This document shows, piece after piece, positions 4,701 to 59,818 of a stretch of DNA of 64,000 nt. The DNA comes from an uncultured Planctomycetales bacterium. GTDB lineage: Bacteria > Omnitrophota > Gorgyraeia > Zapsychrales > Fredricksoniimonadaceae. Position 1 is the stretch's first letter. Each line of letters starts with the position of its first letter. The position numbers were made by a program, and so were the translations under genes. The DNA lies in NCBI GenBank assembly GCA_964583975.1, contig CAZOXU010000001.1, positions 163,552 to 227,551 on the forward strand, written 5' to 3'. The notes below the pieces were generated by a model, which searched no databases, was not told the origin of the DNA, and saw only the letters and a program-made list of their open reading frames with translations.

Positions 4701-4704
4701 AGTT

Positions 4705-8507: not shown

Positions 8508-8513
8508 GTAATC

Positions 8514-9890: not shown

Positions 9891-9893
9891 AAA

Positions 9894-10490: not shown

Positions 10491-10493
10491 AGA

Positions 10494-39049: not shown

Positions 39050-39787
39050 TTATGTTTGCACCGGATTCGTATGGATCGTCAAAAATATCACTGTTTCAGT
39101 TTTTTGCATTAATCGACCTTGCTTACGAAACACCAAACCCAGCAAGGGTAAATCTCCCAAAAGAGGGAGTTTCTGGGTCTTAGACATTTCTTGTTCCTGC
39201 ATCAGCCCACCAATGATGACAGAATACGTATCTTTTAGTTCAACCTCGGTCTGACTTTTTAAAATCACTGGGCTTAAAGGATCGCTGCTGTCTTTAATGA
39301 TCATTCCTAATTCAGGTAAGATTCGCAGTTTAGCCTCACCTGCAGGAGTAGTGATCCACGTCAAATCTAAATGGATAGTCGGTACTTTTTGAGGGTCAAC
39401 TGAAACGTCAATGGTGCGAGGTTCATTTTTCACCAAGGAGATAGGGCCAAAGTCATTTTGCATATAATGACCTACCGTGTCTAAGGCATCTAACAAAACG
39501 GTATAATCTTCGCTAGAAACCTCCCCCACACTAAGTCGATATCGCTTATCGGCCCAAACAGGATTATCAGCCTTTTTTAATTGCAAACTATGGAAATCTG
39601 CCACAATGGCTTCCCAGTCAATACCTTTACGATGCTCATCGTTAAGAATAATCTCAACAACCTTAGCTTCGATGGTGATCGTTTCTGAAACGCTCGTAGG
39701 AGCAGTAGCCTGCGCAATTTGTGTGTTTTGGGCAAAGAGAATCGTTGGAGTGATGAGACTGATAACAATAAAAGCTAAATACCGCAT
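39050..39787 (-). CDS. Short secreted protein carrying a secretin C-terminal signature (minimal secretin-like protein)
   Basis: It has a signal peptide (MRYLAFIVISLITPTILFAQ). The C-terminal ..SVIIGGLMQEQEMSKTQKLPLLGDLPLLGLVFRKQ...TETVIFLTIHT matches the conserved secretin motif (V/I)P(L/I)LGD(I/L)P(L/I)LGxLF ... (V/I)(I/F)(L/I)(T/V)P. The product is only ~245 aa. Confidence 0.4.
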   Translation of the reverse strand: MRYLAFIVISLITPTILFAQNTQIAQATAPTSVSETITIEAKVVEIILNDEHRKGIDWEAIVADFHSLQLKKADNPVWADKRYRLSVGEVSSEDYTVLLDALDTVGHYMQNDFGPISLVKNEPRTIDVSVDPQKVPTIHLDLTWITTPAGEAKLRILPELGMIIKDSSDPLSPVILKSQTEVELKDTYSVIIGGLMQEQEMSKTQKLPLLGDLPLLGLVFRKQGRLMQKTETVIFLTIHTNPVQT

Positions 39788-39800
39788 GGCATCTAGAATA

Positions 39801-40634
39801 TTAAATTTTCGACCACTTCGCAATGAAAAATCCTTCCATTCGACCATCGGGTATAATTCGCTCTTTGGACTCTAAAACCAGCCCCTCGGATTTGCGGGCT
39901 AACCATTCTACCACTTCTTCGTTTTCTTCCACAGCAAAGGTACAAGTACTATAAACTAATACGCCTCCTGGCTTCACCAATCGACTAGCATTGAGCATAA
40001 GTCCTTTTTGTTTATGGGCCATTTCTTTGATCTTACGTGGAGACCAATAGGCATAACTCTTGGGCTCGTCATATTTAAATCGCCCTTCCGAGGAGCAAGG
40101 CGCATCTACCAAGACCCTATCAAATGGTCGATCTTTAATGCGATATCGTCGTCCATCGACCATCGAAAGGGTCGCCTTGGCTCCGGTGGGCTCGAGCACG
40201 CTTTTAAGGCGATAGAATCGCCCTCGCACCGCTTCATTAGCCATTAAAACCCCTTCATTGTTCATAAGCGCTGCGATCTGTGAGGTTTTACTGCCAGGCG
40301 CTGCACATAAATCTAAGATCGTTTCCCCAGGCTGCGGATCTAAAAACATGACCGCTTTCATACTTTCAAGACCCTGCGGATAAAGCAATCCTTGTTCAAC
40401 CAACGATGAACTCATCAATTGTCGACTCTGGACGGCTGGAACGCTTAGGACAAGTGGAAAATCTGAGCTTATCGTAAAATCGACCCCTAGCTCTTTAACC
40501 TGCTCTTGCGCTTGCGCTACAGATAACTTCAAAGTGTTCACACGAAAATGCGTTGATGAAAGCGGTCGGCCAAAATGTTCAAAGGCTTCAGGGGGCAGTG
40601 TCGCTTGTAAGCGTTTTAAAAATAGTTCATCCAT
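39801..40634 (-). CDS. rRNA cytosine-C5 methyltransferase, NOL1/NOP2/Sun (RsmB/RsmF-like) family
   Basis: DLCAAPGSKTSQ (SAM motif), the catalytic DAPCS(S) and the TC-Cys region are present. Confidence 0.65.
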   Translation of the reverse strand: MDELFLKRLQATLPPEAFEHFGRPLSSTHFRVNTLKLSVAQAQEQVKELGVDFTISSDFPLVLSVPAVQSRQLMSSSLVEQGLLYPQGLESMKAVMFLDPQPGETILDLCAAPGSKTSQIAALMNNEGVLMANEAVRGRFYRLKSVLEPTGAKATLSMVDGRRYRIKDRPFDRVLVDAPCSSEGRFKYDEPKSYAYWSPRKIKEMAHKQKGLMLNASRLVKPGGVLVYSTCTFAVEENEEVVEWLARKSEGLVLESKERIIPDGRMEGFFIAKWSKI

Positions 40635-40708: not shown

Positions 40709-41728
40709 ATGATATCTAAAAAAATAGGTCAATCCATTATTGAGTATGTCCTTCTGGCAATGCTGGTCATTGTTGGCACCATTGTCATGGGCCCCTATTT
40801 TATCCGTTCGATTGGTTCCCATTTTCATTTGTGGCAAGAAGCTGTTGACGACTCGATCGATGATCGCATGGTCCAGGCCAAAGGCGTTTCAATTCCCACG
40901 ATCTGTCAATGCGGCCCGCTTCAATCCGGAGCTTGCGGAGGCCATTTTCAAACTTCCAGTGCCAGCTGTCCGGTTGATTCTCGCTATTCTTACACTCCTT
41001 GTTCGCCGCCTGGTTGCGGGTTCACCTCTCCAGGATTTCAAGAAACATGTGTCTTAGATACTAATTTCTGCTGTGCTAACTACCGGCTTTGTTCTAATTT
41101 TTACAATCCAGGCAATCCAGGATGCTGTGGCCGAACTCCTTTAAATAATCCAGGATGTCTCAATAGGCCAGTGGGAGTTGAGTTAAATGCAGTGAATAAC
41201 CCTGGCACGGCCCCTAGCAATTACTCCAACTATTGTTGTTACAATGAAATGGCCCTTATCAATAACTGCTATCAAGATGCTGCTCATTATGCTTTTATTA
41301 AATGTCAACGTGTTCCAGGCCAATGTCAACCGATGTGTACCGGCACGCCTCATGCCCACTCGCATGCTTGTCCCGTTGGTACATTAACTCAAGATAGACC
41401 TTATACTGTGGTTCCAGGAGCTACTTGCCCCGCTCCCGGTGATGCATGTAATGAGATTTGTGATGTTGGGTATCAATGGAATGGTACTGCGTGTGCTACA
41501 CCAATGTACCAAATAGCTAGTAATCCCAATACAAATCCACCTGAACAAGAAACAAACTCCAATAATCTACCTCAAGGTCCTTGGTGCTTTAGCGGAATAG
41601 TCACTTCCATTACTTCAGCTGGAGTTGGATGTAACGTAGGACCCGACCCTAATCCAGGACAAGCTGGATCTGGATCAGGCGCCAATGCTGGACCTCCCGG
41701 ACAAAATTGCTCCTTAGTTGTTAATTAA
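40709..41728 (+). CDS. Cysteine-rich secreted protein with an Flp-pilin / class III signal-peptide leader (candidate hyper-modified pilin-like or RiPP-like precursor)
   Basis: From the ATG at 40709 the product begins MISKKIG|QSIIEYVLLAMLVIVGTIVMG, which fits the Flp prepilin motif G|xxxxEY followed by a hydrophobic helix. The ORF-track start at 40694 is a TTG 15 nt upstream. The mature region of ~310 aa has about 27 Cys (~9-10%), many NPG/PG repeats and Ser/Thr/Asn-rich stretches. Its stop overlaps the start of the kinase gene by 1 nt. Confidence 0.5.
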   Translation: MISKKIGQSIIEYVLLAMLVIVGTIVMGPYFIRSIGSHFHLWQEAVDDSIDDRMVQAKGVSIPTICQCGPLQSGACGGHFQTSSASCPVDSRYSYTPCSPPGCGFTSPGFQETCVLDTNFCCANYRLCSNFYNPGNPGCCGRTPLNNPGCLNRPVGVELNAVNNPGTAPSNYSNYCCYNEMALINNCYQDAAHYAFIKCQRVPGQCQPMCTGTPHAHSHACPVGTLTQDRPYTVVPGATCPAPGDACNEICDVGYQWNGTACATPMYQIASNPNTNPPEQETNSNNLPQGPWCFSGIVTSITSAGVGCNVGPDPNPGQAGSGSGANAGPPGQNCSLVVN

Positions 41729-42705
41729 TGTACTCAAAAACTTCTGCCTCGACCTCTCGCGGAATAAATCCTAAGCTCCTTGCTTCCCCGAAGGATATTA
41801 CTGAGCTCTGCAAATTTTTTAAAATAGGCAAGCTCCAATCTTATGAACAAGAAAAAGATATTCTTCGTTGTCACTTCAATGTATCGATTTTTGTCGTTAC
41901 AACTCAGGGTGAGTTTAGATTTAAGTTCTACCCTTCTCATAGAACCAAAAATATTCTATTCGAATATAAAATTAACCATATTCTGAGGGCTCATCGTTTT
42001 CTGACCCCTTCCATGTACGCTGGCTCTAATCATCGCAGCTTTTTTACCCACAAAAATCATCTTGTTACCTGCTATTCGTATATCGAAGGGTCTGTGTTAG
42101 ATAAAAAACATATCCAACGACCAAAAATCGTTGAACAAATTAACGCTGGCCTACTTTCTTTAAAAAATATTTTAGCTGCTAAATTGCGATCCATTCCTTG
42201 TGAGAGACAAGAAAATTTTGTTACCACCGTTCATATGCTAATCCAAAAACATCGGGCCATGTCTGCATCGAACAAAAAAAAGGTCATTGAAACATCGCTC
42301 CTGGAGATCTGCCGAACCTATCAACACCATCAAACGTTATTTACCCAACAATGGATACATAATGACGCTATTTTAAATAATTTTCTTATTTCTAAAAAAA
42401 CCATCTACACTCTAGATCTCGAACATATCCAGAAAACGTACATACTCACTGATTTAGCAAAACTCGTCATCTCGTGTTTGTCTTTTGATGCTTCCACCTC
42501 AACGATCAAAAACATCGTTAAGAACTACTTCGCTCAACATCAATTAAAACCTCAATATTTGATAGTTCTCGAGACTCTCATTAAAATGTATCTCATTTGG
42601 GAATATTTAGGGGCCTACCAAAACGCAGATATCCATCAACAACGTAAGAAATCTATTACTCAACTCATAGAGAAAATAAACGAAATCCCAGAGCTTATTA
42701 GGTAA
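41728..42705 (+). CDS. Protein kinase-like phosphotransferase (APH/choline-kinase/HSK-II fold)
   Basis: The catalytic-loop-like WIHNDAILNNFLI (HxDxxxxN) is followed by YTLDLEHI (DxE/DFG-like). The gene is translationally coupled to the upstream Cys-rich protein gene. Confidence 0.45.
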   Translation: MYSKTSASTSRGINPKLLASPKDITELCKFFKIGKLQSYEQEKDILRCHFNVSIFVVTTQGEFRFKFYPSHRTKNILFEYKINHILRAHRFLTPSMYAGSNHRSFFTHKNHLVTCYSYIEGSVLDKKHIQRPKIVEQINAGLLSLKNILAAKLRSIPCERQENFVTTVHMLIQKHRAMSASNKKKVIETSLLEICRTYQHHQTLFTQQWIHNDAILNNFLISKKTIYTLDLEHIQKTYILTDLAKLVISCLSFDASTSTIKNIVKNYFAQHQLKPQYLIVLETLIKMYLIWEYLGAYQNADIHQQRKKSITQLIEKINEIPELIR

Positions 42706-42706: not shown

Positions 42707-43528
42707 TTATTCTCTTCTCTTAGCGCCTTCTAACCAAAGACCGTGAATAATCGCTTTTAGCTTCGAATCATCGATAGGGTCACTGTCTGAAACGATTGGC
42801 GCAGGTGAAGCTCGGTGACCAAAGGCCTTGACCAAAAGAGGACGTACTAATAAAGGAACTTGGACTTCACGAGGAGTATTTAGGTGAGGAATTTGTTGAG
42901 CAATGTCTAATGCACGTAAGAGCTTCTTGTCTTTCTTTAAAGCAACTGGAATGGATTGGGACAATTTGAGCATTGAATCAGAGAGAAATGGAAAAACGAA
43001 GCGACATCCATGCTTCTGGGCCACCTGGTGATGCGCCTGGGTATCAGCCATGGCCCAATCCCAAGCTTGGGTAAAGCGAGGGTCTTCTCGATCGAGCGCC
43101 TGATCACCCAACCACTGATCACTTCCCATTCCAGAGATAAAGGTATCTCCAGCTATTTGAGTATCATATTTCTTGAGTGCCGCATACACAACAGCCAGAT
43201 CGAGGTCTAAGAGAGGTTTGTCTGTCATCGGACAGAGAGCTTCAAACGCAGATAAGAATTCTACAGTCTTAACAGGTAAAATGTGATGTTCAATTCCAAG
43301 TGTCCGGGCACTTTGGATCGAACTTTGCACAGTTAAGGGATTAAAATCTTCAAACTGCACTGTTACAGCAACGATCTTAGCTCCGCAGTGCTGGGCCAAG
43401 CATGCCATAAGCATCGAATCAAAACCGCCGCTAAACATAATGGCCTTGCGAGTGCCTTTAATCTGACCGACACTCTCAATCAGTGTTTCTTGAAGGTTCA
43501 GAAGCGTTTTATCCCCTGCGTTAATCAT
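42707..43528 (-). CDS. PP-loop ATP pyrophosphatase, asparagine-synthetase C-domain-like (amidotransferase/adenylating)
   Basis: AIMFSGGFDSMLMA is an SGGxDS PP-loop. The product is ~270 aa and stands alone. Confidence 0.5.
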   Translation of the reverse strand: MINAGDKTLLNLQETLIESVGQIKGTRKAIMFSGGFDSMLMACLAQHCGAKIVAVTVQFEDFNPLTVQSSIQSARTLGIEHHILPVKTVEFLSAFEALCPMTDKPLLDLDLAVVYAALKKYDTQIAGDTFISGMGSDQWLGDQALDREDPRFTQAWDWAMADTQAHHQVAQKHGCRFVFPFLSDSMLKLSQSIPVALKKDKKLLRALDIAQQIPHLNTPREVQVPLLVRPLLVKAFGHRASPAPIVSDSDPIDDSKLKAIIHGLWLEGAKRRE

Positions 43529-44255
43529 TGCTTATGTCCTTAAACAGCTGTCCTTTCCATCCCTGCTTCACATTTAAAGCAGCCATATACTTAAAAAATT
43601 GAACCAATTCCTTACGCGAAGCTGCAGTTTTAAAATCAGCGTGATGAGTCACTACCCCTGCAATCGAATGAGCAGCCACACTCTTAACGAGGTTAGCAAT
43701 TACTTCCGAGGCTTTATAAACACTGGTTTCACCCAAATCATATCGACTAAAAGAGACTTGAACTGACAAATCAATGAAACGTCGCTTGATTCCTCTTGAA
43801 GGATAGCCTGCAGAGAAAATCTTAAAGCCTTCTTCTTTGAGAATCCGTAAGGTGCGTTCATCATAGCCATGATATGGTGGGACAAAGGCGCGAGTGAAAT
43901 ATTCTCCAAAAGCTTGCTGCATCTTTCTTAACCCTTGTTGAATATCTTCACGCTGAGATTTTAGTGATCGCAAAGGTCCAAACTCATATTTGGTGCCGAT
44001 CTTCTTAGAATAATTCTTATGCATCCATCCATGCTGGACAATATCAAGTAAATGGGGATTTCTGGCCTTGGCTTGGCAGAGAAATCGAACTGTCGGTTCA
44101 TCAATTTTGCCCGGGATCACGGCATGAATTACAGGAATCTTATGCTTGATCGCTAAATCAAAGAAGTAACGAAACTCTCGATCCAGCGTCCAGGGATCAT
44201 CGTTCCTGATAAAAAAACGTGCACTCGTCATATTATTAAGTATACTATTTTTCAC
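43521..44255 (-). CDS. Polysaccharide-deacetylase-like (NodB homology / CE4-like) hydrolase
   Basis: FIRNDDPW (DD motif) and VQHGWMH (His pair) are spaced as in NodB-domain motifs 1 and 2. This is a tentative call. Confidence 0.35.
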   Translation of the reverse strand: MKNSILNNMTSARFFIRNDDPWTLDREFRYFFDLAIKHKIPVIHAVIPGKIDEPTVRFLCQAKARNPHLLDIVQHGWMHKNYSKKIGTKYEFGPLRSLKSQREDIQQGLRKMQQAFGEYFTRAFVPPYHGYDERTLRILKEEGFKIFSAGYPSRGIKRRFIDLSVQVSFSRYDLGETSVYKASEVIANLVKSVAAHSIAGVVTHHADFKTAASRKELVQFFKYMAALNVKQGWKGQLFKDISND

Positions 44256-44261: not shown

Positions 44262-45461
44262 ATGCGCGTCTTATTCCATTACACTCATAAACAAACCCTC
44301 GGACATACCACCAGAAGCGTTGCTCTTTGCAATGCTATTTTACATCATAAAGCTGATCTTCTGATCCTCCAAGGCGGGGTGCCGCAGCCTTTTATTCATT
44401 TTCCCAAAGGCGCTCGAGTCCTAGATATTCCTTCACCATTTGATGATCGTCGCAGTTTTCAAACGCTTCCAGCTGCTGTATCAGCAGCTCAACGGGCCCA
44501 ATTTATCCTCAAAGTGGCAGAAGAATTTGCTCCCGATGTTTTTATTACAGAATTCTTTCCCTTTGGCAGAATGGCCTACATGTCCGAACTTCTGCCGACC
44601 TTACGCACCTTACGTAAAAAAGGCACTCGCATTATAGCTAGTATTGGCTATCCCTTTCTGGCGGAATTAAATCGGATCGAGGATCCTAAACAAGCTGAGC
44701 TTCAGCAAGCCCTCTTTGCCTTCTATGATCGATTCTTAATTCATACACCTAAGGATCTCGAGACTCCTTACATCAAAAAGAGCATTGCCTCGCCAACGCT
44801 TGCCAAGTTATACACCCGAGTCCTCAAGGATTTAGCGAAGAAAATTGTTTATACAGGCTATGTCTACCCTGAAAAAATCATGACTGGTGGCGGTCAGCTG
44901 CCGACGTTTAAGAAATCAACGAACACCATTGTTGTTTCGCGTGGCGGTGGTGCGGTTTATCCTAAACTTATTACAGCAGCGATCGAAGCGCAACGTCAAC
45001 TGGATCAAACCTACCAAACCATCCTTGCCTGCGGGCCAACCACCACCGAGGCAGAAATGAAGTTATTTCAATCTTACATTAAGCCTCAAGATAAAAATCG
45101 TATCCATCTTGTCAGTCACCTGGATAATCTCGATGATCACTTAAGTCAATGCCATGTTTCGGTGAGTCTGTCGGGATATAACACCTCGGTGCAATTGATG
45201 CGCCATGGCACACCATCGGTGATTGTCCCTTACAGAAATACCCTTGCTAAAATCTCAACGAGCGATCAGGTTGCTCGAGCTGCACTTTTGCAAGCAAAGT
45301 TTCAAAGCACCATCCTTGATTATGAGAGCTTAACTGAAAACTCCCTTGCTAGCGCCATCCAAAAACAGATAAGCCAGCCACGACCCAAGGCCGCACCTGC
45401 CAACTGGTTTAAAGGCGCTGATCATTCGGCACGTATTATCGTTGAAGATACTCGAGATTGA
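44262..45461 (+). CDS. GT-B fold glycosyltransferase (GT1/GT28-like), paralog of 62600..63826
   Basis: The N-terminus is MRVLFHYTHKQTLGHTTRSVAL. The internal VVSRGGGAVYPKLITAAIEA block is shared almost verbatim with the 62600..63826 product (VVRGGGAVYPKVIAEAIRA). Confidence 0.4.
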   Translation: MRVLFHYTHKQTLGHTTRSVALCNAILHHKADLLILQGGVPQPFIHFPKGARVLDIPSPFDDRRSFQTLPAAVSAAQRAQFILKVAEEFAPDVFITEFFPFGRMAYMSELLPTLRTLRKKGTRIIASIGYPFLAELNRIEDPKQAELQQALFAFYDRFLIHTPKDLETPYIKKSIASPTLAKLYTRVLKDLAKKIVYTGYVYPEKIMTGGGQLPTFKKSTNTIVVSRGGGAVYPKLITAAIEAQRQLDQTYQTILACGPTTTEAEMKLFQSYIKPQDKNRIHLVSHLDNLDDHLSQCHVSVSLSGYNTSVQLMRHGTPSVIVPYRNTLAKISTSDQVARAALLQAKFQSTILDYESLTENSLASAIQKQISQPRPKAAPANWFKGADHSARIIVEDTRD

Positions 45462-46422
45462 ATTTCTTTAAAAAACCATGGTAGGCAAAACAACGAGGAC
45501 AATCGCCCTTGGCTGCAGCTTCACTATGTTGCTTTCTGATCGGATCTAATTGCTCAGGCAAGGATCCATCAAAGCCAACCTGGCCCGCTGGTGAGAGATA
45601 AAGACACGGATAAACATTACGCCTGGAATTAATAAACAACGATTTGGCAGGTGTAGCACAAGCTCGAATACATTGCCTTCCACCTTCTAATAAAACCATG
45701 CTGGCTTCAACCAATTTCCTATCGACTCCTGGATAGTTATCTTTAAGGATCTCATTAATCTGAGCTTGCACGCTTCGAACCATGTCAGGGCCTATGGCTG
45801 CTAATGTATCTGTATTAAGCATCGAATGGCGATGATAATAATCTTCAACACCTGATTCCATGATCTTAGGTGAAAATCTGGCTTTAAACTGGCGAGCTAA
45901 TTGATAGACATCCTTGATCTCAAGATAATTGAGTTGATTGATCGTAAATTTAAATTCCATCTCAACATCTTGGCCATGATTCTCTGCGAGCCATTGAATG
46001 GTCTTGATCGTCTTGGCATAAGCTCCTGGCCCACGCAAACGATCGTGGGTAGCTGGGAGGCCATCAATGCTGATACCCATATCTATCCCCTTCAAGAACG
46101 GGCCATAATTCGTAAAAACCCGACGGACGCCTTCAAAATACGCTGCATTGCTGTACACCCCAAAACTTCGAATGGCTCCTTGAGTACGCAATAAAGATAA
46201 CGCTTTTAACAAACGACCACAGTTACGATTTAAAAATGGTTCGCCACCTGTAATCGATACCGAGAAAATCTGATAACGTTCTAAGAGCTCACGCATCATG
46301 CGTACAACCATCGAAGCGGTCATTTCATGGCGCTCTTTTTCCGCCCATATGCCACAATGCTGACAGTGCAGTTGGCAATGATTGGTTATTTCAACGGTGA
46401 CATTCTCAAGTACGGGCTTCAT
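45436..46422 (-). CDS. Radical SAM / SPASM-domain enzyme (peptide-maturase type)
   Basis: The cluster CQLHCQHCG (CxxxCxxC), GGEPFL and C-terminal Cys arrays CIRAC...YPCLY...GDCPRCF are SPASM-like. Confidence 0.65.
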   Translation of the reverse strand: MKPVLENVTVEITNHCQLHCQHCGIWAEKERHEMTASMVVRMMRELLERYQIFSVSITGGEPFLNRNCGRLLKALSLLRTQGAIRSFGVYSNAAYFEGVRRVFTNYGPFLKGIDMGISIDGLPATHDRLRGPGAYAKTIKTIQWLAENHGQDVEMEFKFTINQLNYLEIKDVYQLARQFKARFSPKIMESGVEDYYHRHSMLNTDTLAAIGPDMVRSVQAQINEILKDNYPGVDRKLVEASMVLLEGGRQCIRACATPAKSLFINSRRNVYPCLYLSPAGQVGFDGSLPEQLDPIRKQHSEAAAKGDCPRCFAYHGFLKKFNLEYLQR

Positions 46423-47407
46423 TTTCCACCATTCGACCTAAGGCCAGGGCCCGGTTTATATTTCTTTCATAAAAAGGACATGTCAGACAAGCTTTAAACA
46501 TTTTCTGGACATGGCCATATTTTCCTAAACTACGAAGTTCATTCATCTGCTCTGATAGCCAAAATTCCTTAAAACCTGATTGATCAAAATCACTACTTCG
46601 CATCTTAGCAATACGGTAGCAATAACTATAGTTATCATCGACATTCACAATCGAGTGAAACCAGCCATTCAAGCAGCTCGGAGGAGTCCGCTTAATCTCT
46701 CCTCCCATATCTCCAGGATGTCCTTCAGGCAAAGCAAATTCCTTGTTATACGGCACCTCATTCATTCGTCCGTAATAAACTGAATTGACTCGCAATTGGG
46801 CAGCTAGCTCTCTCATTTTCTGGTGTTCGTTAATATTGCCTGTATGAAGAATGTAGGCAATTTCGATATGAAAATCAGGCTTGATCGAGTCACGCAGGGC
46901 CACAAAACGTCGAATATTATTAATCACCCGATCAAAAAGGTCCTTGCCTTGCAAATCGATAAAGTGCTGGCGATCGACCGCGCCTAGATTGACCACCACA
47001 TGATCGCCTTTAATAATTTCATCACATAACTCTTCTGGAAAGGTGGCGTTGGTAAACAGCTTGACGCTCAGCGGCTTCTCTGCCAAATAGCGCATCATGT
47101 CTTTAAACAAAGGATGTAAGGTTGGCTCGCCTGAACCGACAATTTGAATTTGATCTACATTAAGCTCAACCGCATCATCAACAATCCCCACAAATTTCTC
47201 CCAGGGAAAATGATGTGCTTTCTCTAAATGAGCTGGGTTACCATTACCGTGGATCCAACAATACTGACAAGTTAGATTGCACGAATTGGTAAAACCTATC
47301 CCTATCACCTCAGGACCAATATAGGCTTTATTATCACGGGCCCCGGCAATCCTCAATAAATACCGTCGTTTTAATTCTGCAGCATCAATAATCATTGTTG
47401 TCCTCAA
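46406..47407 (-). CDS. Radical SAM enzyme, tandem paralog A (with a C-terminal 4-Cys auxiliary motif)
   Basis: CNLTCQYC and GSGEPTLHP are present. The C-terminal Cys residues are in CLNGWF, ..YCY.. and KACLTCPFYE. The N-terminal MIIDAAELKRRY..RIAGARDNKAYIGPE is shared by the four tandem copies. Confidence 0.65.
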   Translation of the reverse strand: MRTTMIIDAAELKRRYLLRIAGARDNKAYIGPEVIGIGFTNSCNLTCQYCWIHGNGNPAHLEKAHHFPWEKFVGIVDDAVELNVDQIQIVGSGEPTLHPLFKDMMRYLAEKPLSVKLFTNATFPEELCDEIIKGDHVVVNLGAVDRQHFIDLQGKDLFDRVINNIRRFVALRDSIKPDFHIEIAYILHTGNINEHQKMRELAAQLRVNSVYYGRMNEVPYNKEFALPEGHPGDMGGEIKRTPPSCLNGWFHSIVNVDDNYSYCYRIAKMRSSDFDQSGFKEFWLSEQMNELRSLGKYGHVQKMFKACLTCPFYERNINRALALGRMVENEART

Positions 47408-47416
47408 TAAAACCCA

Positions 47417-48319
47417 TCACGCAAAATTTCTACCTACTCCTTGAACCTGACCCGATTTTCCTAAAAGACGTAATTTCATCATTTCTGGTGATAGCCAGAA
47501 CGCTTTTAAAGAATCCTGGTCAAAATCACTGCCAGAATCTTTATAACAACTATTAAACTTACCGTCCGATGTCAGTAATACAAAAAACCAACCATTTAAT
47601 CCTCTGGGAGGATTTTCTTTGCGATAAATATCTAACTCAGGATATTCTGACAAGGCAATGTTTTGATTATATGTATATGGCCTCATTTTTTGAAAATCGA
47701 CCAAATTAACTCCTAGTTGAGAACTCAACTCTTTCATCCGTTGCATTTCATTAACATTCAAAGCATTAACGATATAAGCAATTTCAATCTCAAATTCAGG
47801 TTTATGAGCATCGCGCATCAATACTAACTGTCGGATATTGGCTACCACTCTGTCAAAAAAATCTTTTCCCTGCAACTCGTGATAATGTTGTTTATCCACT
47901 GAACTAAGATTAACAATTACCTTATCAGCCTTGATGACATCTGAACAAAAATCAATAGGAAAGGTCGCATTGGTGAATACTTTTACATACAGTGGTTGAT
48001 TTTCTAAATGTCGCATCATATCTCGAAAAGATGGATGGATCGTGGGTTCTCCTGTTCCCATCACAGTCACCTGATCAACATTAAGATCAACACAATCACG
48101 AATGGTTTCAAGAAATCTTTCCCAAGAAAGGAATTGGGCTTTATTAAAATGAGCTGGATTTCCAAGAGAGTGATCAGCATAACAAAACTGGCATCTAATG
48201 TTACAGGCATTGGTAAGTTCGATCGTAACGATTTCAGGGCCAATGTAAGCTTTATGATCGCGCACACCCATCAGGCGTCGTTCATAGCGGCATTTTAACT
48301 CTGTAGCATCAATGATCAT
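47417..48319 (-). CDS. Radical SAM enzyme, tandem paralog B (C-terminal Cys motif lost)
   Basis: CNIRCQFC and GTGEPTIHP are present. The product ends ..GKSGQVQGVGRNFA without the CxxC. No frameshifted continuation is visible. Confidence 0.6.
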   Translation of the reverse strand: MIIDATELKCRYERRLMGVRDHKAYIGPEIVTIELTNACNIRCQFCYADHSLGNPAHFNKAQFLSWERFLETIRDCVDLNVDQVTVMGTGEPTIHPSFRDMMRHLENQPLYVKVFTNATFPIDFCSDVIKADKVIVNLSSVDKQHYHELQGKDFFDRVVANIRQLVLMRDAHKPEFEIEIAYIVNALNVNEMQRMKELSSQLGVNLVDFQKMRPYTYNQNIALSEYPELDIYRKENPPRGLNGWFFVLLTSDGKFNSCYKDSGSDFDQDSLKAFWLSPEMMKLRLLGKSGQVQGVGRNFA

Positions 48320-49296
48320 ACCTTATTCTCTTCTAGCGCAGCCTGCGCACGTTGAATATTCTCATCGTAAGATGGACATTTTTGACAAGCTTTGTATTTT
48401 TTCTGTGTATGTCCATATTTTCCCAAAAGCCGTATCTTATCCATATGAGACGAGAACCAATATTGTTTCAAAGACCACTTATTTAAATCTCCGAAACCCA
48501 GCTGAGAAATCATATAACAGTTAGTAAAATTACCGCCGGACATAATGAGAATATAAAACCAACCATTCAAACAAGCCTCGGGAGACCTTGCTCCATCACT
48601 CGTTAAATCTCGACTCAAGCTTTCTGGCACGATAATGTCTCGGTTATACTCAGTGACAATCATTTTTCTATAATCCACCCGATTGACACCTAGCTCGTCT
48701 GCCAAATCGTTCATCTGTGGTATTTGATTAAAATTAACTGTGTTCACAATATAAGCGATTTCTATTTTAAAGCCGGGTTTGGCAGCATCGCGCATAGCCA
48801 CAAGACGCTTAATATTGGCTACGACTCGATCGAATAAGTCTTTGCCCTTCATCTGAATATAATGTTCTCGATTAACAGCACTGAGATTAATGATGACATG
48901 ATCGACCTTAAATACCTCGGCACAAAGATCCAAAGGAAACGCTGCATTCGTATGCAATTTAATGTACAAGGGTTGATTCTCCACATGTCGCATCATCTGC
49001 CGAAATGATGGATGTAAGGTTGGCTCACCTGAGCCAACAATAGTCATTTCATCAACTTTCATCTCAACACAATCATCGACAATCCCCTGAAACTTTTCTA
49101 GAGACAAAAAATGGGCCTTATCAAAATGAGCTGGATTTCCAGGCGCATGTTCGGTGACACAAAACTGACAGCGCACATTACAGGCATTGGTGAGCTCGAG
49201 CGTTACATTTTCAGGTCCAATATAAACCTTATTATTACGCACTCCGGAGATGCGTTGGGTGTGTCGATGTTTTAATTCTAGAGGATCAATAATCAT
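48316..49296 (-). CDS. Radical SAM enzyme, tandem paralog C (C-terminal CxxC retained)
   Basis: CNVRCQFC and GSGEPTLHP are present, with C-terminal CLNGWF ... KACQKCPSYDE. Confidence 0.65.
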   Translation of the reverse strand: MIIDPLELKHRHTQRISGVRNNKVYIGPENVTLELTNACNVRCQFCVTEHAPGNPAHFDKAHFLSLEKFQGIVDDCVEMKVDEMTIVGSGEPTLHPSFRQMMRHVENQPLYIKLHTNAAFPLDLCAEVFKVDHVIINLSAVNREHYIQMKGKDLFDRVVANIKRLVAMRDAAKPGFKIEIAYIVNTVNFNQIPQMNDLADELGVNRVDYRKMIVTEYNRDIIVPESLSRDLTSDGARSPEACLNGWFYILIMSGGNFTNCYMISQLGFGDLNKWSLKQYWFSSHMDKIRLLGKYGHTQKKYKACQKCPSYDENIQRAQAALEENKV

Positions 49297-49304
49297 AATA
49301 TTCT

Positions 49305-50246
49305 CTACTGATCAACCAACTGATGATTGAGACGAAACTGTCTTTCAAATGCCCTGATTTGACCATTCTTTCCTAATAGCCGCAATTTCATCATTTGAGT
49401 CGAAAGCCAAAAGTCTTTCAAAGAGTACTTATCAAAACCCCCTAGACTCCCCTCAGGAATTTGATAAAAAGGATCAAAGTTACCCTCTGTTCCAACTAAT
49501 ATATAAAACCAACCATTCAAAGATGATGGAGGAAATATGATTTCTTCATATTCTGCTTCTGTTTTTAAATCTTCAGGTATGGCTACAGACTGGTTATATT
49601 CATGTACTTTCATCTTTTTAAAAAAGACGGAATTAACACCTAATTCTGCGACGAGTTCCTGCATTCTTTGTTTTTGATGAATATTCATCATGTTCATCAC
49701 ATAATCAATCTCAATATGAAACCCTGGCTTCATGGTATTGCGCAAGGCAACCAAACGTTTAATATTGGCAATGACTCGATCGAAAAAGTCTTTTCCTTGT
49801 AATAGCCGATATTGTTCTTGATCAACGGCGCCGAGATTAACCACAACGTGGTCGCCTTTGATGACATCGGAACAATAATCTAAATCAAAAGCTCCGTTGG
49901 TAACTAGAACGACCCTGATGGGTTGTTGTTCTAAATGTCGCATCATCTCTCTAAAGGATGGATGCATGGTTGGTTCCCCTGAACCTATCAGGGTGATCTG
50001 ATCAACCTTTAATTCCACACAATCACGGACTATTTCCACAAATTTCTCCCATGACAAAAAACGGGCCTTATCAAAATGAGCCGGGTTTCCAGGAGAATGA
50101 TCGGTAATACAGTACTGGCATCGAAGATTACAGACATTGGTCAGTTCCAATGTCACAATCTCAGGTCCGATGTACACTTGATGATCGCGTACGCCTGCAA
50201 TCCTTTGCAAGTATCGTTGTTTTAATTCCGCAGCATCAATGATCAT
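49305..50246 (-). CDS. Radical SAM enzyme, tandem paralog D (C-terminal Cys motif absent)
   Basis: CNLRCQYC and GSGEPTMHP are present. The product ends ..GKNGQIRAFERQFRLNHQLVDQ. Confidence 0.6.
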   Translation of the reverse strand: MIIDAAELKQRYLQRIAGVRDHQVYIGPEIVTLELTNVCNLRCQYCITDHSPGNPAHFDKARFLSWEKFVEIVRDCVELKVDQITLIGSGEPTMHPSFREMMRHLEQQPIRVVLVTNGAFDLDYCSDVIKGDHVVVNLGAVDQEQYRLLQGKDFFDRVIANIKRLVALRNTMKPGFHIEIDYVMNMMNIHQKQRMQELVAELGVNSVFFKKMKVHEYNQSVAIPEDLKTEAEYEEIIFPPSSLNGWFYILVGTEGNFDPFYQIPEGSLGGFDKYSLKDFWLSTQMMKLRLLGKNGQIRAFERQFRLNHQLVDQ

Positions 50247-51352
50247 ATTTTTTTCTTAAAAAAAGCACGACAGATTTGAATAGTCTGCTCGGCTTTGTCT
50301 TGGCTCATGAAAGAATGCAATGGCAGATGCAAAGCACAATCCCCATACCATTGACTGACAGGATATCGATCTTTCTTTAATCCTTTAAAAACCTTCATCT
50401 GGTGAAGAGGCAAATATGGCTTTTGGTACATCACCCCTTCTTGCGTTAAAAAATTAGCTAATTTGTCTCTATGCGAAGAACATATCACAAAATTCTGGGC
50501 TACACCCACTGTATCAGGCTGGTCTTTAAAGATTGTCAGGCTCTTAATAGAACCCAATTCCTTTTCATAAAGCGATTTGATCTTATGACGAGAATTGATG
50601 ATTTCTTTTAAGTGAGCAAATTTAACGCGTAAGGCAATCAGATCCAAAAAAGCCATCGGTGCAAATCGCTGCCCGAGCTTCAAAAGTTCTGCATCATCGC
50701 GCCAGTCTTCCATCCAATGACGGATGCGATTTCCTCCATCATGATTAAAAACTACCATCCCACCCCCACCCCCGCATGAAGATAATGGCTTATAGTAAGA
50801 AAATGAAAACACTGAAATATCTCCAAAGCTTCCTAACATGCGCCCCTTATAGCGCGAACTTTCTGCCTGGCATACATCTTCAATAAAGGCGATCTTCTTA
50901 GCTCGAGCCAGTTTGCTGATACGCTCAATATCACACGGACGACCAAACATATGGGCTGCAACGATGGCCTTGGTTTTCTTAGTAATGGCCTTCTCTAACA
51001 AAGCAGGATCTATTTGCAAATCATCCTTACTGGCATCCACAGGCACGGGTGTGGCCCCACAATAAAACACAGCTAAGGCAACTGCCTGGTAGGTCAAATT
51101 TGGCACAATGACTTCATCGCCAGCTCCTACGCCAGCGAGCAGCAAAGCCATTTTAAGCGCATCGCTGCCTGAGTTGACCGCTACAGCTTCTTTCACGCCA
51201 ATGTAACGAGCAAATGTTCGTTCAAATTCGCGAAGTGCAGGCTTAATATCATTAAGCCCTTTCATAGCCTTAAGAGCTGTTTGCATTTCCATAGCATACT
51301 CACGGCTTAAGGCCTGCTCAACTAAGAGACTTTCATATCTTATAGCTGCCAT
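50243..51352 (-). CDS. DegT/DnrJ/EryC1/StrS-family PLP-dependent aminotransferase
   Basis: VNSGSDALKMALLLAGVGAGDEVIVP and SFSYYKPL (lysine motif) are present. The likely start is MAAIRY at 51352. The ORF-track start at 51379 overlaps the upstream gene further. Confidence 0.65.
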   Translation of the reverse strand: MAAIRYESLLVEQALSREYAMEMQTALKAMKGLNDIKPALREFERTFARYIGVKEAVAVNSGSDALKMALLLAGVGAGDEVIVPNLTYQAVALAVFYCGATPVPVDASKDDLQIDPALLEKAITKKTKAIVAAHMFGRPCDIERISKLARAKKIAFIEDVCQAESSRYKGRMLGSFGDISVFSFSYYKPLSSCGGGGGMVVFNHDGGNRIRHWMEDWRDDAELLKLGQRFAPMAFLDLIALRVKFAHLKEIINSRHKIKSLYEKELGSIKSLTIFKDQPDTVGVAQNFVICSSHRDKLANFLTQEGVMYQKPYLPLHQMKVFKGLKKDRYPVSQWYGDCALHLPLHSFMSQDKAEQTIQICRAFFKKKI

Positions 51353-52364
51353 GCAACGCTCCCATGATCTTATGATCAATTTCCTCGATCTGCTTGCACA
51401 GATCGATGTAATTCATGACACGTGGTTCAAAACGACGTCCTGGTGGTGTTTGAACAGCTTGTAGGGCATTAAAATTGCTGATGCTGCGATAAGAGCAGCT
51501 CGGATGGTTGGTGACATATTCATGCAAGGCCTTAAAATATCGCACGCCCTGCGGCAGCAAATCACCGGATGAACTTTGAGAAAAATCCATCAGATACAAA
51601 TGTTCGCGCACCTCTTCTGGAAAAGATAGCAATAACCAATTGGCTAGGATCTTGCCGCTCGGCACAGACAATAAATCCCATGTACCGCGAGCCGCTTCAC
51701 TATATCCGCGACCGATCAACCCTTGCCGTCCCTCTTTTAATTCCCAGGCACAGGCCCTACGATACTGATCTAAGAAAATCTTGGCCGCCTCGCTATCCCA
51801 TACTTCAAGAAAGGCTGGATGCACTTCCAAAGACTTTAATCCCATCGAAGCTAATAATTTTACATTTTCAAAAAGTTTGGCAACACTCGATGGATGCACA
51901 ACCATGGTAGCCGTCATAGGTCCCTTGGCGTTAATAGCTAGGTTCACACCACGCAAAATATCTCTGTAATAGTATTCACCAATACCAGGACGATTGCGTT
52001 GGGTGGTAGCCTCATCGCCATCAATACCCACTTCCAAATTAACGTTATGCTGCACGAAGAAATTCATGAGGCTAGCATCAAGCAAGGTCGCATTGGTTTG
52101 TACGGAAATGTAGCGAGCTAGTTCCTGCTGGCGGATCACACTAATCATCTCTTTGAGCCTGTCTGCATCCATTAACGGCTCACCGCCTGAAAAAACAAAT
52201 TCCGCCGGAACAACTGGGCGGATGTATTTTAAAATATTTTCGAATGTCTTTAACTCAATGACCTGGCTCTGAGATCGGTATTTATAAAAACAATAGCCGC
52301 AGCCGAGATTGCAGCGGTCGGTAAAGAACAACCAGACATGGTTGATATTATTAAGCATGGCCAA
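51333..52364 (-). CDS. Radical SAM enzyme, anSME-like N-terminal core, paralog 1 (no SPASM Cys array)
   Basis: FFTDRCNLGCGYCFY and FSGGEPLM are present. It is a paralog of the 52351..53454 product. Confidence 0.6.
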   Translation of the reverse strand: MAMLNNINHVWLFFTDRCNLGCGYCFYKYRSQSQVIELKTFENILKYIRPVVPAEFVFSGGEPLMDADRLKEMISVIRQQELARYISVQTNATLLDASLMNFFVQHNVNLEVGIDGDEATTQRNRPGIGEYYYRDILRGVNLAINAKGPMTATMVVHPSSVAKLFENVKLLASMGLKSLEVHPAFLEVWDSEAAKIFLDQYRRACAWELKEGRQGLIGRGYSEAARGTWDLLSVPSGKILANWLLLSFPEEVREHLYLMDFSQSSSGDLLPQGVRYFKALHEYVTNHPSCSYRSISNFNALQAVQTPPGRRFEPRVMNYIDLCKQIEEIDHKIMGALHGSYKI

Positions 52365-53454
52365 ATCTCTTTAATTTAAGTTTCAAGTGCGTACGTGTTA
52401 AAAATCGCATAATGTCATTAATGGCCCAGGTATTCATATATTGGCGGCCCATCATTGTGTTCATTAATTCAAAGTTGTGACAAACATGTTCACGATACGG
52501 CAGGCGCTTGTGTTGCTGATGCATTTGTTCATAAGCTTCGGTGTAAATCGCCATGATCTCAGGTCGAAACTCGCCGGTTGTCGCATCCCACAGATTAAAC
52601 TCAATGCGTTTTTCTTCAGGCAGACACAGAAAAGGATCGCCTCCGAATAAATACCCGGGTGGATGCAGGCTTAAATCCATGACTCCGGGCTCAATCCACT
52701 CGACATCTTCATTCACATACATCCCATGGCGAAGCTCAGGACGGCGAGCTAGGCTCAAATAGTTTTGTTTAAAAAGCGCGACCGTTTCAGGGGTCCAAGG
52801 CATGAAAGCTGCTGGCGTGATATCAATATGCGGGATTCCTAGCTTCACTAAGAAATCCAAACCTTTTTCCATATGTTGCACTTCGTGCGGATGCACCGTC
52901 ATGGTTGAGCCGCACGAGATGCCTGCAGCCACACATTTTTGGATGGTATCAGTTAATTTCTTAAACGAAGCTGGTTTTAATCCGCAACGATGCTCGGCCG
53001 TTGTTTCAAAAGCCCCATCAATACCAAACTCAAGGCTGACTTTTAATCGACGTAACTCTTCAATTGAGGCATCATCAATCAATAAACCATTGGTTTGAAT
53101 ATGCAGTGAGGTGTTCTTGAAACGATGGTGGGCTTCATTAAGGATCTTAAAAAGATTCTCTTTGGCTAGAAAGGCTTCCCCACCGCTAAAGATCAGGGTT
53201 GAAGGAGCTGTTTGTTCTCTTTCAAACAATAAAAAAAGCTGTTCGACAGCAGCCATGGAGATTTCCCGACCGTGCATGTGTCTAAAGAAACAATAGTCGC
53301 AATGCAAATTGCAACGCTCGGTCACATAAATCCAGGTGTAATGGACCTTAAATTTCTTATGCGTCTTTTCTTGAATCAATGAAGTAACGGATTTTTCCAT
53401 TAGTGGTCCTTGGAATGCTTCCTTGATGCGTTCTGACATCGATGCAGCGGTCAA
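52351..53454 (-). CDS. Radical SAM enzyme, anSME-like N-terminal core, paralog 2
   Basis: YVTERCNLHCDYCFF and FSGGEAFL are present. The ORF-track N-terminus overlaps the upstream gene, so the true start is probably an internal Met (e.g. MEKSV..). Confidence 0.6.
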   Translation of the reverse strand: MTAASMSERIKEAFQGPLMEKSVTSLIQEKTHKKFKVHYTWIYVTERCNLHCDYCFFRHMHGREISMAAVEQLFLLFEREQTAPSTLIFSGGEAFLAKENLFKILNEAHHRFKNTSLHIQTNGLLIDDASIEELRRLKVSLEFGIDGAFETTAEHRCGLKPASFKKLTDTIQKCVAAGISCGSTMTVHPHEVQHMEKGLDFLVKLGIPHIDITPAAFMPWTPETVALFKQNYLSLARRPELRHGMYVNEDVEWIEPGVMDLSLHPPGYLFGGDPFLCLPEEKRIEFNLWDATTGEFRPEIMAIYTEAYEQMHQQHKRLPYREHVCHNFELMNTMMGRQYMNTWAINDIMRFLTRTHLKLKLKRFGHA

Positions 53455-54523
53455 TGCCGGTGGCCTTCACGATAGCCTGTATTAAGGCTGCAGCTGCTCG
53501 AGGCTTTTTATCGACTAGATTTACTATAAGTTTATCATAATATTTCAACGGATGCTTGTCTAACACGAAGAAGAACCGTGGGTGGCCCAGGGAATCATTG
53601 ACCGCCCGAATCAGCTCTTGTTTCAACACCACAACCCCGTTGATGAGAAGGCTGTCCTCGGTTCTACTTAAAACCTTAATGCCCAATGCTCCTCGGTGGC
53701 GAATCAACTCAACGCGATCTCCCAGGCGATAACGGATAAAAGGCATGCTGGTGTTATTCAAATCGGTCACCAGAAGATCGCCCGAGCCACTCTGGCTAGT
53801 CTCGCCCGAGGCGCTTAGCACCTCTAACAATAAATCATCAGCCACAACTCTCATGTACTGGTCAGCAGGTTTAAGCGCCACTGCTAATCCTGAGATTTCC
53901 ATAGCTCCGTAATGATCGTGGATATGAACGCCTCCCATCTTTTCAATACGCTGGCGGTATTGCGGCCACAGCGGCTCGCCATTGACCAAACAACGCTTAA
54001 TCGAATGGTTTTTTCTCAATAGAGCAAAAATATCAAAAAGCTGATTAGTGTAAGCATTGATCATGGTGGGCTTCAAAGCCTTGATCAAACCAATGGCTTC
54101 TTTAAGTCGTTCAGGAGTACTTGTGGAACCTAAAGGAATAACTCCACAGCCTGCCGCTTTAAAACCAGCTTCCATCAAACGGCCACCGCTATTAAGTTCA
54201 TACGAACACAGATTCAGGCACAGCATACCCTTTTTAACACCCACCAGTCGATAGAGTTTAACCAACCGAGCCAGATGTGCTGCGTAGGCTGGCTCGCTAT
54301 GGGCAATCATCATGCGTGAAGACGATGATCCTGAAGTAGCTGCCAAATTAAAAGCATTACTTATCAGGCCTGACTCGGCAAATCGCTTCATTTCACTTCT
54401 GCCAGTAATTGGCAATTGTTTAAAATCCTCCCAAGAACGTATCTGCTTTCGATAATAACGGTCTTTCTTAGCAAAGACCGATACTAATTGGGCCGCTTGC
54501 TTTAAATTTTTAGCATTAAACAT
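53357..54523 (-). CDS. Adenylate-forming enzyme, PaaK / coenzyme F390 synthetase / CapK-like
   Basis: TSGSSSSRMMIAH resembles the P-loop-like (S/T)SG(S/T)(S/T)G motif of the PaaK-family ANL superfamily. The ~390-aa size fits. This is a tentative call. Confidence 0.4.
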   Translation of the reverse strand: MFNAKNLKQAAQLVSVFAKKDRYYRKQIRSWEDFKQLPITGRSEMKRFAESGLISNAFNLAATSGSSSSRMMIAHSEPAYAAHLARLVKLYRLVGVKKGMLCLNLCSYELNSGGRLMEAGFKAAGCGVIPLGSTSTPERLKEAIGLIKALKPTMINAYTNQLFDIFALLRKNHSIKRCLVNGEPLWPQYRQRIEKMGGVHIHDHYGAMEISGLAVALKPADQYMRVVADDLLLEVLSASGETSQSGSGDLLVTDLNNTSMPFIRYRLGDRVELIRHRGALGIKVLSRTEDSLLINGVVVLKQELIRAVNDSLGHPRFFFVLDKHPLKYYDKLIVNLVDKKPRAAAALIQAIVKATGIDRCIDVRTHQGSIPRTTNGKIRYFIDSRKDA

Positions 54524-58888: not shown

Positions 58889-58903
58889 AGTGACCTATAA
58901 ATT

Positions 58904-59800: not shown

Positions 59801-59818
59801 CTCATACCCTTCCTGAGC

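Follow-up and report, generated by a model that had tools for sequence, protein, structure and literature searches.

The stretch of Omnitrophota DNA analysed here, 64 kb in length and called the window throughout (contig CAZOXU010000001.1), carries on its plus strand an open reading frame (ORF) that starts at TTG 40694 or ATG 40709, stops at 41728 and is followed by an island of genes for putative modification enzymes. From the ATG the product is a protein of 339 amino acids (aa) with the N-terminus MISKKIG↓QSIIEYVLLAMLVIVGTIVMG (the arrow marks predicted cleavage), in which a short basic leader, the motif G↓xxxxEY and about 20 hydrophobic residues are all found. An earlier, sequence-only reading of the window had singled out this gene, and its description of the ORF, the Flp-type leader motif, the 27 Cys, the NPG repeats (five), the tail rich in N, G, P and S and the 1-nt overlap of the stop codon with the next gene is borne out. 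The two starts that it named are both present and both precede the leader; ATG 40709 is the likelier, because its 7-residue leader resembles those of homologues (MIFKKLG, MLKTKG) and falls among the commonest lengths in the family, 5-7 residues. CC pairs lie at residues 121, 139 and 176, the final 70 residues include 11 N, 11 G, 10 P and 8 S, and in the TAATG at 41726-41730 the TAA of this gene and the ATG of the next have one base in common. A six-frame scan of the window for G-x4-E-[YF] plus a hydrophobic stretch returned 40709-41728 as its sole match and no other class III ORF. The parts of the gene are as follows.

40709..40729, plus strand: class III (Flp-type) leader MISKKIG, from the sequence, with predicted prepilin-peptidase cleavage after G7
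40730..40861, plus strand: pilin-like alpha-1 helix, residues 8-51, with a hydrophobic transmembrane half and then the motif MGPYxxRSxxxHFxLW..DDS
40886..41518, plus strand: Cys-rich head, about residues 60-270, holding 24 of the 27 Cys
41519..41728, plus strand: low-complexity tail rich in N, G, P and S, ending ...PPGQNCSLVVN and then the stop, delimited by composition and a low predicted local distance difference test score (pLDDT), with the island-linked C-terminal Cys motif

A Cys-rich family with a Flp-type leader

Orphan status of the protein was suggested by a word-indexed search that returned four proteins only (the protein itself and relatives at 64%, 46% and 43% identity), and was ruled out by an exhaustive HMMER profile search of 1.84 billion representatives, which gave 372 proteins at E <= 1e-3 and 175 at E <= 1e-10. 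The 372 representatives, which stand for clusters at 50% identity, are between 63 and 1162 aa long. When one genome per GTDB species was scanned, 19 loci were found (related loci are cited below by L-numbers), every one of them in an Omnitrophota metagenome-assembled genome, some of these being labelled Planctomycetales or simply "bacterium", and the family appears to be Omnitrophota-specific. As far as a literature search not aimed at it and the survey of the phylum go, it is previously undescribed; the survey discusses the Tad machinery and never mentions cysteine (PMC10066038).

Across 119 aligned members the processing site is close to uniform, with G (83) or A (31) at position -1, Q (112) at +1, S (94) at +2, E (117) at +5 and Y (107) at +6, the common signal being G/A↓Q-S-I-I-E-Y. 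Conservation of E5 and Y6, by which the sequence-only reading had proposed that the leader be checked, is therefore evident (117 and 107 of the 119). Alignment to the Flp/Fap hidden Markov model (HMM), another of its proposed checks, failed for the protein itself: neither the 339 aa nor the first 60 match Flp_Fap (PF04964) up to E = 10, and only 5 of 22 relatives match it, weakly (best E = 1.3e-3). The conserved motif, these weak matches and the Tad operons in which relatives and short Flp genes share the leader nevertheless uphold the assignment as Flp-type. The TadE and Tad profiles (PF07811 / PF13400) are matched neither by the protein nor by the 22 relatives at E <= 1, and the protein, having Q at +1, lacks the type IVa/IVb N-methylation motif (G↓F/M-T-L-x-E; PF07963 / TIGR02532) and gives no match to N_methyl.

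Conservation extends beyond the processing site, where the stretch MGPYxxRSxNAHFKLW..DDS is kept among the 119 members; G28, P29, Y30, R33, S34 and D48 are at least 89% conserved, and of the 27 Cys, 22 occupy positions kept by 74% of members or more. The C-termini are variable and run from short N/P/S/G tails to extensions of several hundred residues (in whole proteins of up to 1162 aa), with PA14 domains in 2 of the 22 relatives and Gly-rich (Gly_rich_2) domains in some members. Identity to the orthologue in L001 is 43% for the pilin-like protein and 75-92% for the flanking housekeeping genes, a pattern of fast evolution that is typical of a surface protein.

The structure predicted by AlphaFold2 from the 119-sequence alignment (mean pLDDT 79.7) superseded a run on only four sequences, which gave a pLDDT of 38 and was unusable. 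It comprises one long helix (residues 6-51, pLDDT > 90), a compact head that is rich in Cys and mostly beta (about residues 60-270; pLDDT largely 76-96, falling to 57-70 near residues 151-170) and a tail that is poorly defined save for two short strands (pLDDT < 50 at residues 274-290 and 318-326). In this model the protein has the overall plan of a type IV pilin, a helix of about 45 residues with a globular head behind it. What is new is the Cys-rich head, which has no match to a Pfam family or to a PDB fold or sequence.

Three groups of known proteins invite comparison. The Flp/Fap pilins (PF04964; Aggregatibacter Flp1, Caulobacter PilA) are alike in the leader, the G↓xxxxEY motif, the helix and the RcpC/RcpA/TadZ/TadA operons in which relatives of the protein lie, but they are of about 50-80 aa and have no globular head, whereas the 339-aa protein consists of a 45-residue helix, a head of about 200 residues and a tail. 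TadE, TadF and TadG (PF07811, PF13400) are likewise larger, carry a Flp-like G↓xxxxE[FY] signal and are found at Tad loci; they are processed by TadV/CpaA and are thought to be minor or tip components. They hold no counterpart of the Cys-rich head, and the family of the 339-aa protein is unmatched by either profile. Because these proteins too are large and have Flp-like leaders, the unusual precursor architecture claimed by the sequence-only reading was overstated in principle, and what is new in it is the head. The archaeal class III proteins (pilins, archaellins and bindosome proteins, processed by FlaK/PibD/EppA) resemble the family in the Q at +1, the G or A at -1 and a large domain behind a pilin-type helix, and are typically heavily glycosylated. 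The differences are that the lineage here is bacterial, that E+5/Y+6 is the bacterial Flp signature, and that there is no match to Class_IIIsignal (PF04021).

Placement in pilus loci and the case for a minor pilin

In two loci, L018 and L022, the family member (348 aa with 34 Cys and 298 aa with 38 Cys, respectively) is the first gene of a Tad operon and is followed by genes for a SurA-like peptidyl-prolyl isomerase, RcpC/CpaB, an RcpA-type secretin and a TadZ-TadA fusion ATPase. Further downstream lie short Flp-sized ORFs with the family leader, such as a 51-aa ORF with ...HTG↓QSLIEYAVVISLV...; they form clusters at the distal end of the operon (L022 15827-16417 and L018 20119-20343; 51-75 aa, leader KG↓QS(L/T)(I/L)EY) and are probably the major pilins. 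As the short ORFs bear the same leader, the leader is the native Flp signal of these organisms, and their likelier role as major subunits would make the large Cys-rich protein a minor pilin or a tip pilin. In L018 the head retains the conserved spacing of its Cys, and the L022 protein is divergent after the helix. That a large family member is encoded together with short Flp pilins, as is the case for TadE, TadF and TadG, shows a pseudopilin-like way of working but does not show homology to those proteins.

Other members are found beside type IV pilus genes. The family gene is divergent from pilM-pilN-pilO...pilQ in L026 (and in L028 and L035, which were matched to it on gene pattern, not on annotation) and comes after T2SSK-like and PilM-PilN genes in L021. 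In the window and in ten loci reached from the pilin-like gene (L001/L005, L002/L003, L006-L012, L014) it is divergent from rsmB or a short secretin gene, which come after a conserved rdgB-rph-queFECD-murI-amiC block, and the same arrangement recurs in L030, L038, L043 and L051. The secretin gene of the window is the following.

39050..39847, minus strand: short (265 aa) secretin-domain protein (Pfam Secretin 2.6e-16), adjoining the divergent rsmB and pilin-like genes

It lies next to the pilin-like gene in the 11 rsmB-type loci that reach that far, as well as in L030, L038, L043 and L051, and is kept with or without the island. It covers only the C-terminal two-thirds of the Secretin profile, begins with a signal-like segment, and may form a minimal pore in the outer membrane that serves the pilin-like protein.

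On this evidence the protein is probably, though by no great measure, a Flp/Tad-type, prepilin-peptidase-processed, disulfide-rich minor or tip pilin or pilin-anchored adhesin of a new Omnitrophota family, with a head of no known fold. The sequence-only reading had offered two alternatives, a substrate of the downstream maturases and a tip adhesin of a Tad-like pilus, and the second is the better supported. The N-terminal helix would insert the protein into the inner membrane, and the leader would be removed at the predicted site, G7↓Q8, by an A24 peptidase, plausibly the one encoded in the island, whose gene (with both Asp motifs) lies 19 kb downstream. The head would fold outside the cytoplasm with putative disulfides, and the protein would be displayed at the surface with a role in adhesion, whether within a Tad-like or type IV filament (as a minor subunit or at the tip) or held there by its pilin-like anchor, the short Flp ORFs of the Tad loci being the likelier major subunits.

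Certain observations weigh against this assignment. The protein matches neither TadE, N_methyl nor any other pilin model of Pfam or NCBIfam, the window holds no Tad or type IV machinery beyond the short secretin and the A24 gene, and the Cys count is odd in about half of all members and in most island-linked ones, which does not accord with the pairing of all Cys within the molecule. The same three observations, together with a head fold that has no known counterpart and the lack of pilus ATPase and platform genes in the window, would also fit a protein that is not a pilus subunit at all but an uncleaved signal anchor, or a bindosome-like anchor, for a Cys-rich domain with a redox, metal-binding or receptor role; class III signals in archaea also serve surface proteins that form no filament. 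Such an anchor would leave unaccounted for the near-invariant G/A(-1), Q(+1) and E(+5), which are the recognition pattern of a prepilin peptidase, the short Flp ORFs with the same leader, the repeated placement of the family in Tad and pilMNOQ loci and the dedicated A24 peptidase of the island. A regular-expression search of the 339-aa protein found no CxxCH haem motifs either, and we regard the non-pilus anchor as improbable.

The Omnitrophota are uncultured, ultra-small bacteria thought to be predators, parasites or symbionts, and the foremost candidates for their organelles of attachment are Tad and type IV pili (PMC10066038). A family that is abundant in the phylum, fast-evolving and diverse at its C-termini (PA14, Gly-rich) has the look of host-contact adhesins.

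The downstream island and its link to the pilin-like gene

Downstream of the pilin-like gene an island runs from 41.7 kb to at least 63.8 kb of the window (> 20 kb), with intergenic gaps of less than 100 bp. It comprises the following genes.

41728..42705, plus strand: APH-fold kinase-like gene (Pfam APH, E = 8e-11), its ATG overlapping the stop of the pilin-like gene by 1 nt
42707..43528, minus strand: PP-loop ATP-pyrophosphatase of the Asn-synthase C-terminal type, with no glutaminase domain (Asn_synthase 9e-12, QueC 3e-6)
43521..44255, minus strand: DUF2334 / polysaccharide-deacetylase-like protein (profile match; conserved in islands)
44262..45461, plus strand: GT28-family glycosyltransferase, GT28a (Pfam Glyco_tran_28_C)
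45436..50246, minus strand: rSAM1 and four tandem radical S-adenosylmethionine (radical SAM) paralogues, two of the four with SPASM matches
46406-47407, 47417-48319, 48316-49296 and 49305-50246, minus strand: the tandem radical SAM paralogues (sequence profiles)
50243..54523, minus strand: DegT aminotransferase, radical SAMs at 51333-52364 and 52351-53454, and a PaaK-like adenylating ligase at 53357-54523
54527..60679, minus strand: six genes, namely an HTTM membrane protein, an ApbA-like reductase, a B12-type radical SAM, an unknown protein of 291 aa, a radical SAM and an unknown protein of 286 aa
60776..61648, plus strand: CpaA/TadV-type prepilin peptidase (A24; Peptidase_A24 28.6 bits against a cut-off of 26.5; D22, GGD82AKL)
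61645..62643, plus strand: radical SAM, its start overlapping the A24 gene by 4 nt; closest solved relative PqqE
62600..63826, minus strand: second GT28-family glycosyltransferase, with an orthologue in L050

The kinase-like neighbour had been called a kinase in the sequence-only reading, and this holds as far as the APH fold is concerned and the window copy, which has HNDAILNN, K66, E79 and D230 and with them the HxDxxxxN loop. It does not extend to the family: in 24 of 26 homologues (in L002, L008, L013, L019 and L024-L045) the catalytic Asp is Asn (HNNAxLTN), with the Lys, Glu, Asn and Mg-binding Asp kept, and it is retained only in the window (HND) and in L024 (HSD). Judging by these residues, most copies may be pseudokinases or users of an atypical chemistry. 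The PP-loop enzyme is a core island member in L002, L004, L024, L026, L030, L031, L035, L038, L046 and L047. GT28a has 217 homologues at E <= 1e-10, and among the matches listed, those with an organism name are from Omnitrophota. Orthologues of the DegT-to-PaaK block score 285-684 bits in L046, L047, L048, L049 and L050. The A24 peptidase, of about 290 aa, includes some 170 extra C-terminal membrane residues; it has 114 homologues, sits within the island in L050 and L051, and recurs as a pair with its radical SAM partner in a second genome (L050 10001-11889). No description of a prepilin peptidase coupled to a radical SAM was found in literature searches.

Pilin-like gene, kinase-like gene and island co-localise from whichever of four genes the search is anchored. 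From the kinase-like gene, a metagenome scan found a pilin-family gene directly upstream and on the same strand in 12 of the 16 loci with a visible upstream side, and in L036 a divergent Cys-rich class III protein upstream; genome loci with a pilin-family gene directly upstream of a kinase homologue number four. In the window, L002, L008 and L013 the kinase gene is on the same strand and from 1 nt overlapping to about 10 nt away. From GT28a, two of four loci (L046 and L048) have a pilin gene at the island edge. From A24, both loci (L050 and L051) are islands with a pilin gene. L050 lies on the same 27-kb contig as relative P0004, and L051, reached through an A24 homologue at 29% identity, places the A24 gene among radical SAMs, a DegT gene and a fusion of GT28 and radical SAM domains, with DUF2334, a 338-aa pilin-family gene, rsmB and a secretin gene following in that order. 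At least 17 contigs of the same size occur in the GT28a and A24 match lists. The adjacency is seen in at least three upstream contexts, namely the rsmB/secretin block, pilMNO-Q and L046.

The C-terminus of the pilin-like protein varies with this neighbourhood. Island-adjacent members close with PG-x2-3-C-x-hyd-x-hyd-x-[YWFN], which places the Cys 5-6 residues before the end, as in CSLVVN in the window (41690-41725) and CTVSFTY, CQLTFTY, CFVTVQY and CMAILW elsewhere. Of 20 members next to an island, 19 carry the motif, and of 11 without an island, none does (loci: the window, L002, L008, L013, L019, L026-L039, L046 and L051); it has a short extension in three members and lies in a shifted frame in one. 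In L027 (about 6300-6590) the pilin-family gene is apparently frameshifted near its 3' end, with the canonical ending ...GNPGTPGNACTAILQ followed by a stop in another frame, likely as a result of assembly or sequencing error. An odd number of Cys is found in 22 of 29 representatives with a C-terminal C-x5/6 and in 41 of 90 without it (119 representatives; Fisher p = 0.005), a hint, as a matter of composition, that a single Cys in the C-terminal region lacks a partner. The motif may serve as a structural strand, as a tag for recognition or as a site of modification. Protein length differs in a suggestive way: among the proteins of the rsmB-type slot, the seven complete ones next to an island (window, L002, L008, L019, L030/L043, L038 and L051) are of 339-546 aa, compared with 579-1162 aa for six island-less ones. 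Over all contexts length was not significantly related to the presence of the kinase gene (Mann-Whitney p = 0.17), in a grouping that filed the kinase-adjacent L027 and L035 as kinase-less.

The island side of the account has difficulties of its own. L001, L006, L007, L010, L011 and L014 keep the pilin-like gene in the same slot and have no kinase gene or island in the 6.7-10 kb downstream, and for L001 (a 272-kb contig) and L006 (113 kb) no contig of the same size appears in the GT28a list (best 120 of 217) or the A24 list; L047 and L049, two of the four GT28-anchored islands, have no pilin gene within 10 kb. The counts for co-localisation, motif and length take no account of shared ancestry, and the island enzymes all look, from their sequences, cytoplasmic, while the head should be extracytoplasmic, so that the head would be modified before export (as by anSME, HMW1C and autotransporter heptosyltransferases) or through a lipid-linked intermediate. 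Given the island-less relatives and the pilin-less islands, the link between pilin-like gene and island is not obligatory.

It might then be supposed that the protein is a stand-alone pilin or adhesin and that the island serves to make something else, such as an envelope glycolipid or a cofactor, the two being neighbours by way of an ancestral variable junction. The six species-level relatives with the gene in the rsmB/secretin slot and no island would fit this, as would L047 and L049; the genomes are close (housekeeping genes at 75-92% identity), so the synteny may be inherited, and the island enzymes are highly conserved, as in a housekeeping-like pathway. Mere neighbourhood does not sit well with an adjacency that spans at least three upstream contexts, with the same-strand kinase-like gene set from 1 nt overlapping to about 10 nt away in four loci, with a C-terminal motif that tracks the island, or with an A24 peptidase that is a conserved island gene and has the pilin-like protein as the sole class III substrate nearby. 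We therefore take the stand-alone explanation to be rather unlikely, and the balance of the evidence favours a functional link between the pilin-like gene and the adjacent island in this subfamily. The functional link to the downstream enzymes put forward in the sequence-only reading is in this way supported, by co-localisation from four anchor genes and by the conserved CpaA-type peptidase. Its further question, whether homologues always lie beside SPASM radical SAM genes, has a divided answer: a pilin-family gene adjoins the kinase gene in 12 of the 16 kinase-anchored loci and accompanies the island in L046, L048, L050 and L051, but six same-slot relatives have no kinase gene or island in the 6.7-10 kb downstream.

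Island chemistry and the role of the cysteines

The island holds about 11 radical SAMs within 22 kb, four in tandem, one B12-type and several with SPASM matches. The four tandem paralogues (46406-50246) have a common N-terminal MIIDAxELKxRY... extension, and the copies of 300 and 313 aa, which are without the C-terminal CxxC(P) of the SPASM-bearing copies, may be degenerate. The first alternative of the sequence-only reading was that the Cys are crosslink donors for such enzymes and that the gene encodes a protein-scale precursor resembling those of ribosomally synthesised and post-translationally modified peptides (RiPPs): the Flp-like leader would guide the protein to radical SAM/SPASM enzymes, these would install Cys thioethers as in sactipeptides and ranthipeptides, and A24 cleavage would follow. 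The number of radical SAMs, their remote similarity to PqqE, SkfB, anSME, SuiB and CteB, the four tandem paralogues and the coupling of the A24 peptidase to a radical SAM in the window and in L050 all speak for such a precursor. SPASM enzymes are, moreover, known to act on whole exported proteins (anSME on sulfatases, QhpD on QhpC). Small precursor-peptide genes within the island were considered and ruled out, as gaps of less than 100 bp leave no room for them; no other precursor-sized gene thus fits.

The distribution of the Cys argues the other way. The pattern, with its 22 conserved positions, is equally conserved in L001, L006, L007, L010, L011 and L014, which have no island on the contig, and in the Tad-operon member L018; no radical SAM/SPASM gene lies within 6.7-10 kb downstream in the six same-slot or the Tad-operon relatives, and profile searches found no RiPP recognition element (RRE) or PqqD domain in any island protein. 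The Cys are therefore a property of the head fold, and from the sequences they are probably structural, most simply as disulfides in an exported domain, and not crosslink donors. Even numbers of Cys are not favoured in the family, 53% of members having an odd count. The protein is also far larger (339 aa) than the sactipeptide and ranthipeptide precursors of less than about 100 aa, and the island enzymes are far more conserved than their supposed substrate. For some radical SAMs the match to DesII or BlsE equals or exceeds that to peptide maturases, the enzyme mix (DegT, two GT28, deacetylase-like; PMT_2, GT2 and GT9 in relatives) has the look of sugar chemistry, and a regular-expression search of the 339-aa protein found no anSME-type C/S-x-P/A-x-R motif. 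A RiPP-like precursor is accordingly very improbable. In protein-scale maturation by SPASM enzymes (anSME, QhpD/QhpC) the likeness lies in SPASM-type radical SAMs beside a Cys-rich exported protein; the radical SAMs of the island differ in being short (300-367 aa) and without an RRE, a target motif is lacking, and the enzymes encoded alongside have the look of sugar chemistry.

The closest solved relatives of the island radical SAMs are PqqE, SkfB, anSME, SuiB and CteB together with DesII, BlsE and viperin-like enzymes, and as the matches are confined to the core, the chemistry is not decided by them. Related islands also hold PMT_2, GT2, GT9, MBOAT and FemAB-like genes. Pathways to unusual sugars typically contain these as well as DegT, GT28, a deacetylase-like protein and a PP-loop enzyme; enzymes of such kinds are also found in pilin and flagellin glycosylation islands. 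The co-occurrence of DegT, two GT28, deacetylase-like, PP-loop and sugar-type as well as SPASM radical SAM enzymes suggests glycan-type or C-terminal modification over Cys crosslinking. In L051 (11984-14113) GT28 glycosyltransferase and radical SAM/SPASM domains are joined in one protein of 709 aa, which argues that glycosyltransferase and radical SAM steps act in one pathway. The HTTM protein (54527-55960, minus strand), a polytopic protein like vitamin-K-dependent carboxylase, is the only obvious candidate for a step facing the membrane or periplasm; it was not detected in L046, L047 and L050, where the AMP-ligase and ApbA genes adjoin.

Systems that pair a pilin with accessory genes are known from Pseudomonas aeruginosa (pilA with tfpO/tfpW-Z) and from the pilin and flagellin glycosylation islands of Neisseria and Campylobacter, islands of the latter type having DegT/PseC-type aminotransferases and a PseA-like PP-loop amidotransferase. 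The present locus is alike in that the accessory genes lie 3' of the pilin gene, include DegT, glycosyltransferases, a PP-loop enzyme and a deacetylase-like protein, and go with a particular pilin variant; it differs in that no PglL/TfpO-type O-oligosaccharyltransferase was identified in the island and that modification here is putative. To our knowledge, islands for pilin and flagellin glycosylation offer no precedent for the roughly 11 radical SAMs, the HTTM protein and the prepilin peptidase.

In the island-linked subfamily the island would supply processing of the pilin-like protein and probably covalent decoration, either of the protein or of a partner surface glycoconjugate. Possible, though doubtful, is the more far-reaching idea that the pilin-like protein and the island make up one new protein-scale maturation system for a class III (Flp) signal protein. 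The prepilin-type leader would then be the handle or the exit step of a multi-enzyme modification pathway, with the C-terminal PG-x-x-C-x-hyd-x-hyd motif and its apparently unpaired Cys as a possible target; this would be neither classical RiPP chemistry nor classical pilin glycosylation, and a literature search found no paper joining "prepilin peptidase", "radical SAM" and "RiPP". The link to an island of radical SAMs and glycosyltransferases with its own prepilin peptidase points to an uncharacterised form of pilin processing or decoration; if true, it would give a handle on how Omnitrophota build their contact surface and would offer many orphan radical SAM enzymes a substrate.

Two further features of the window lie apart from these genes. 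A separate sugar-modification cluster at 778-13435 includes a 706-aa RmlD-like reductase fused to a DegT aminotransferase, a Polysacc_synt_2 dehydratase, a carbamoyltransferase, a methyltransferase-GT2 fusion and DUF7033. At 30374-33571 on the plus strand, a 1065-aa DUF748 protein marks the far end of the syntenic block and is kept in most related genomes.

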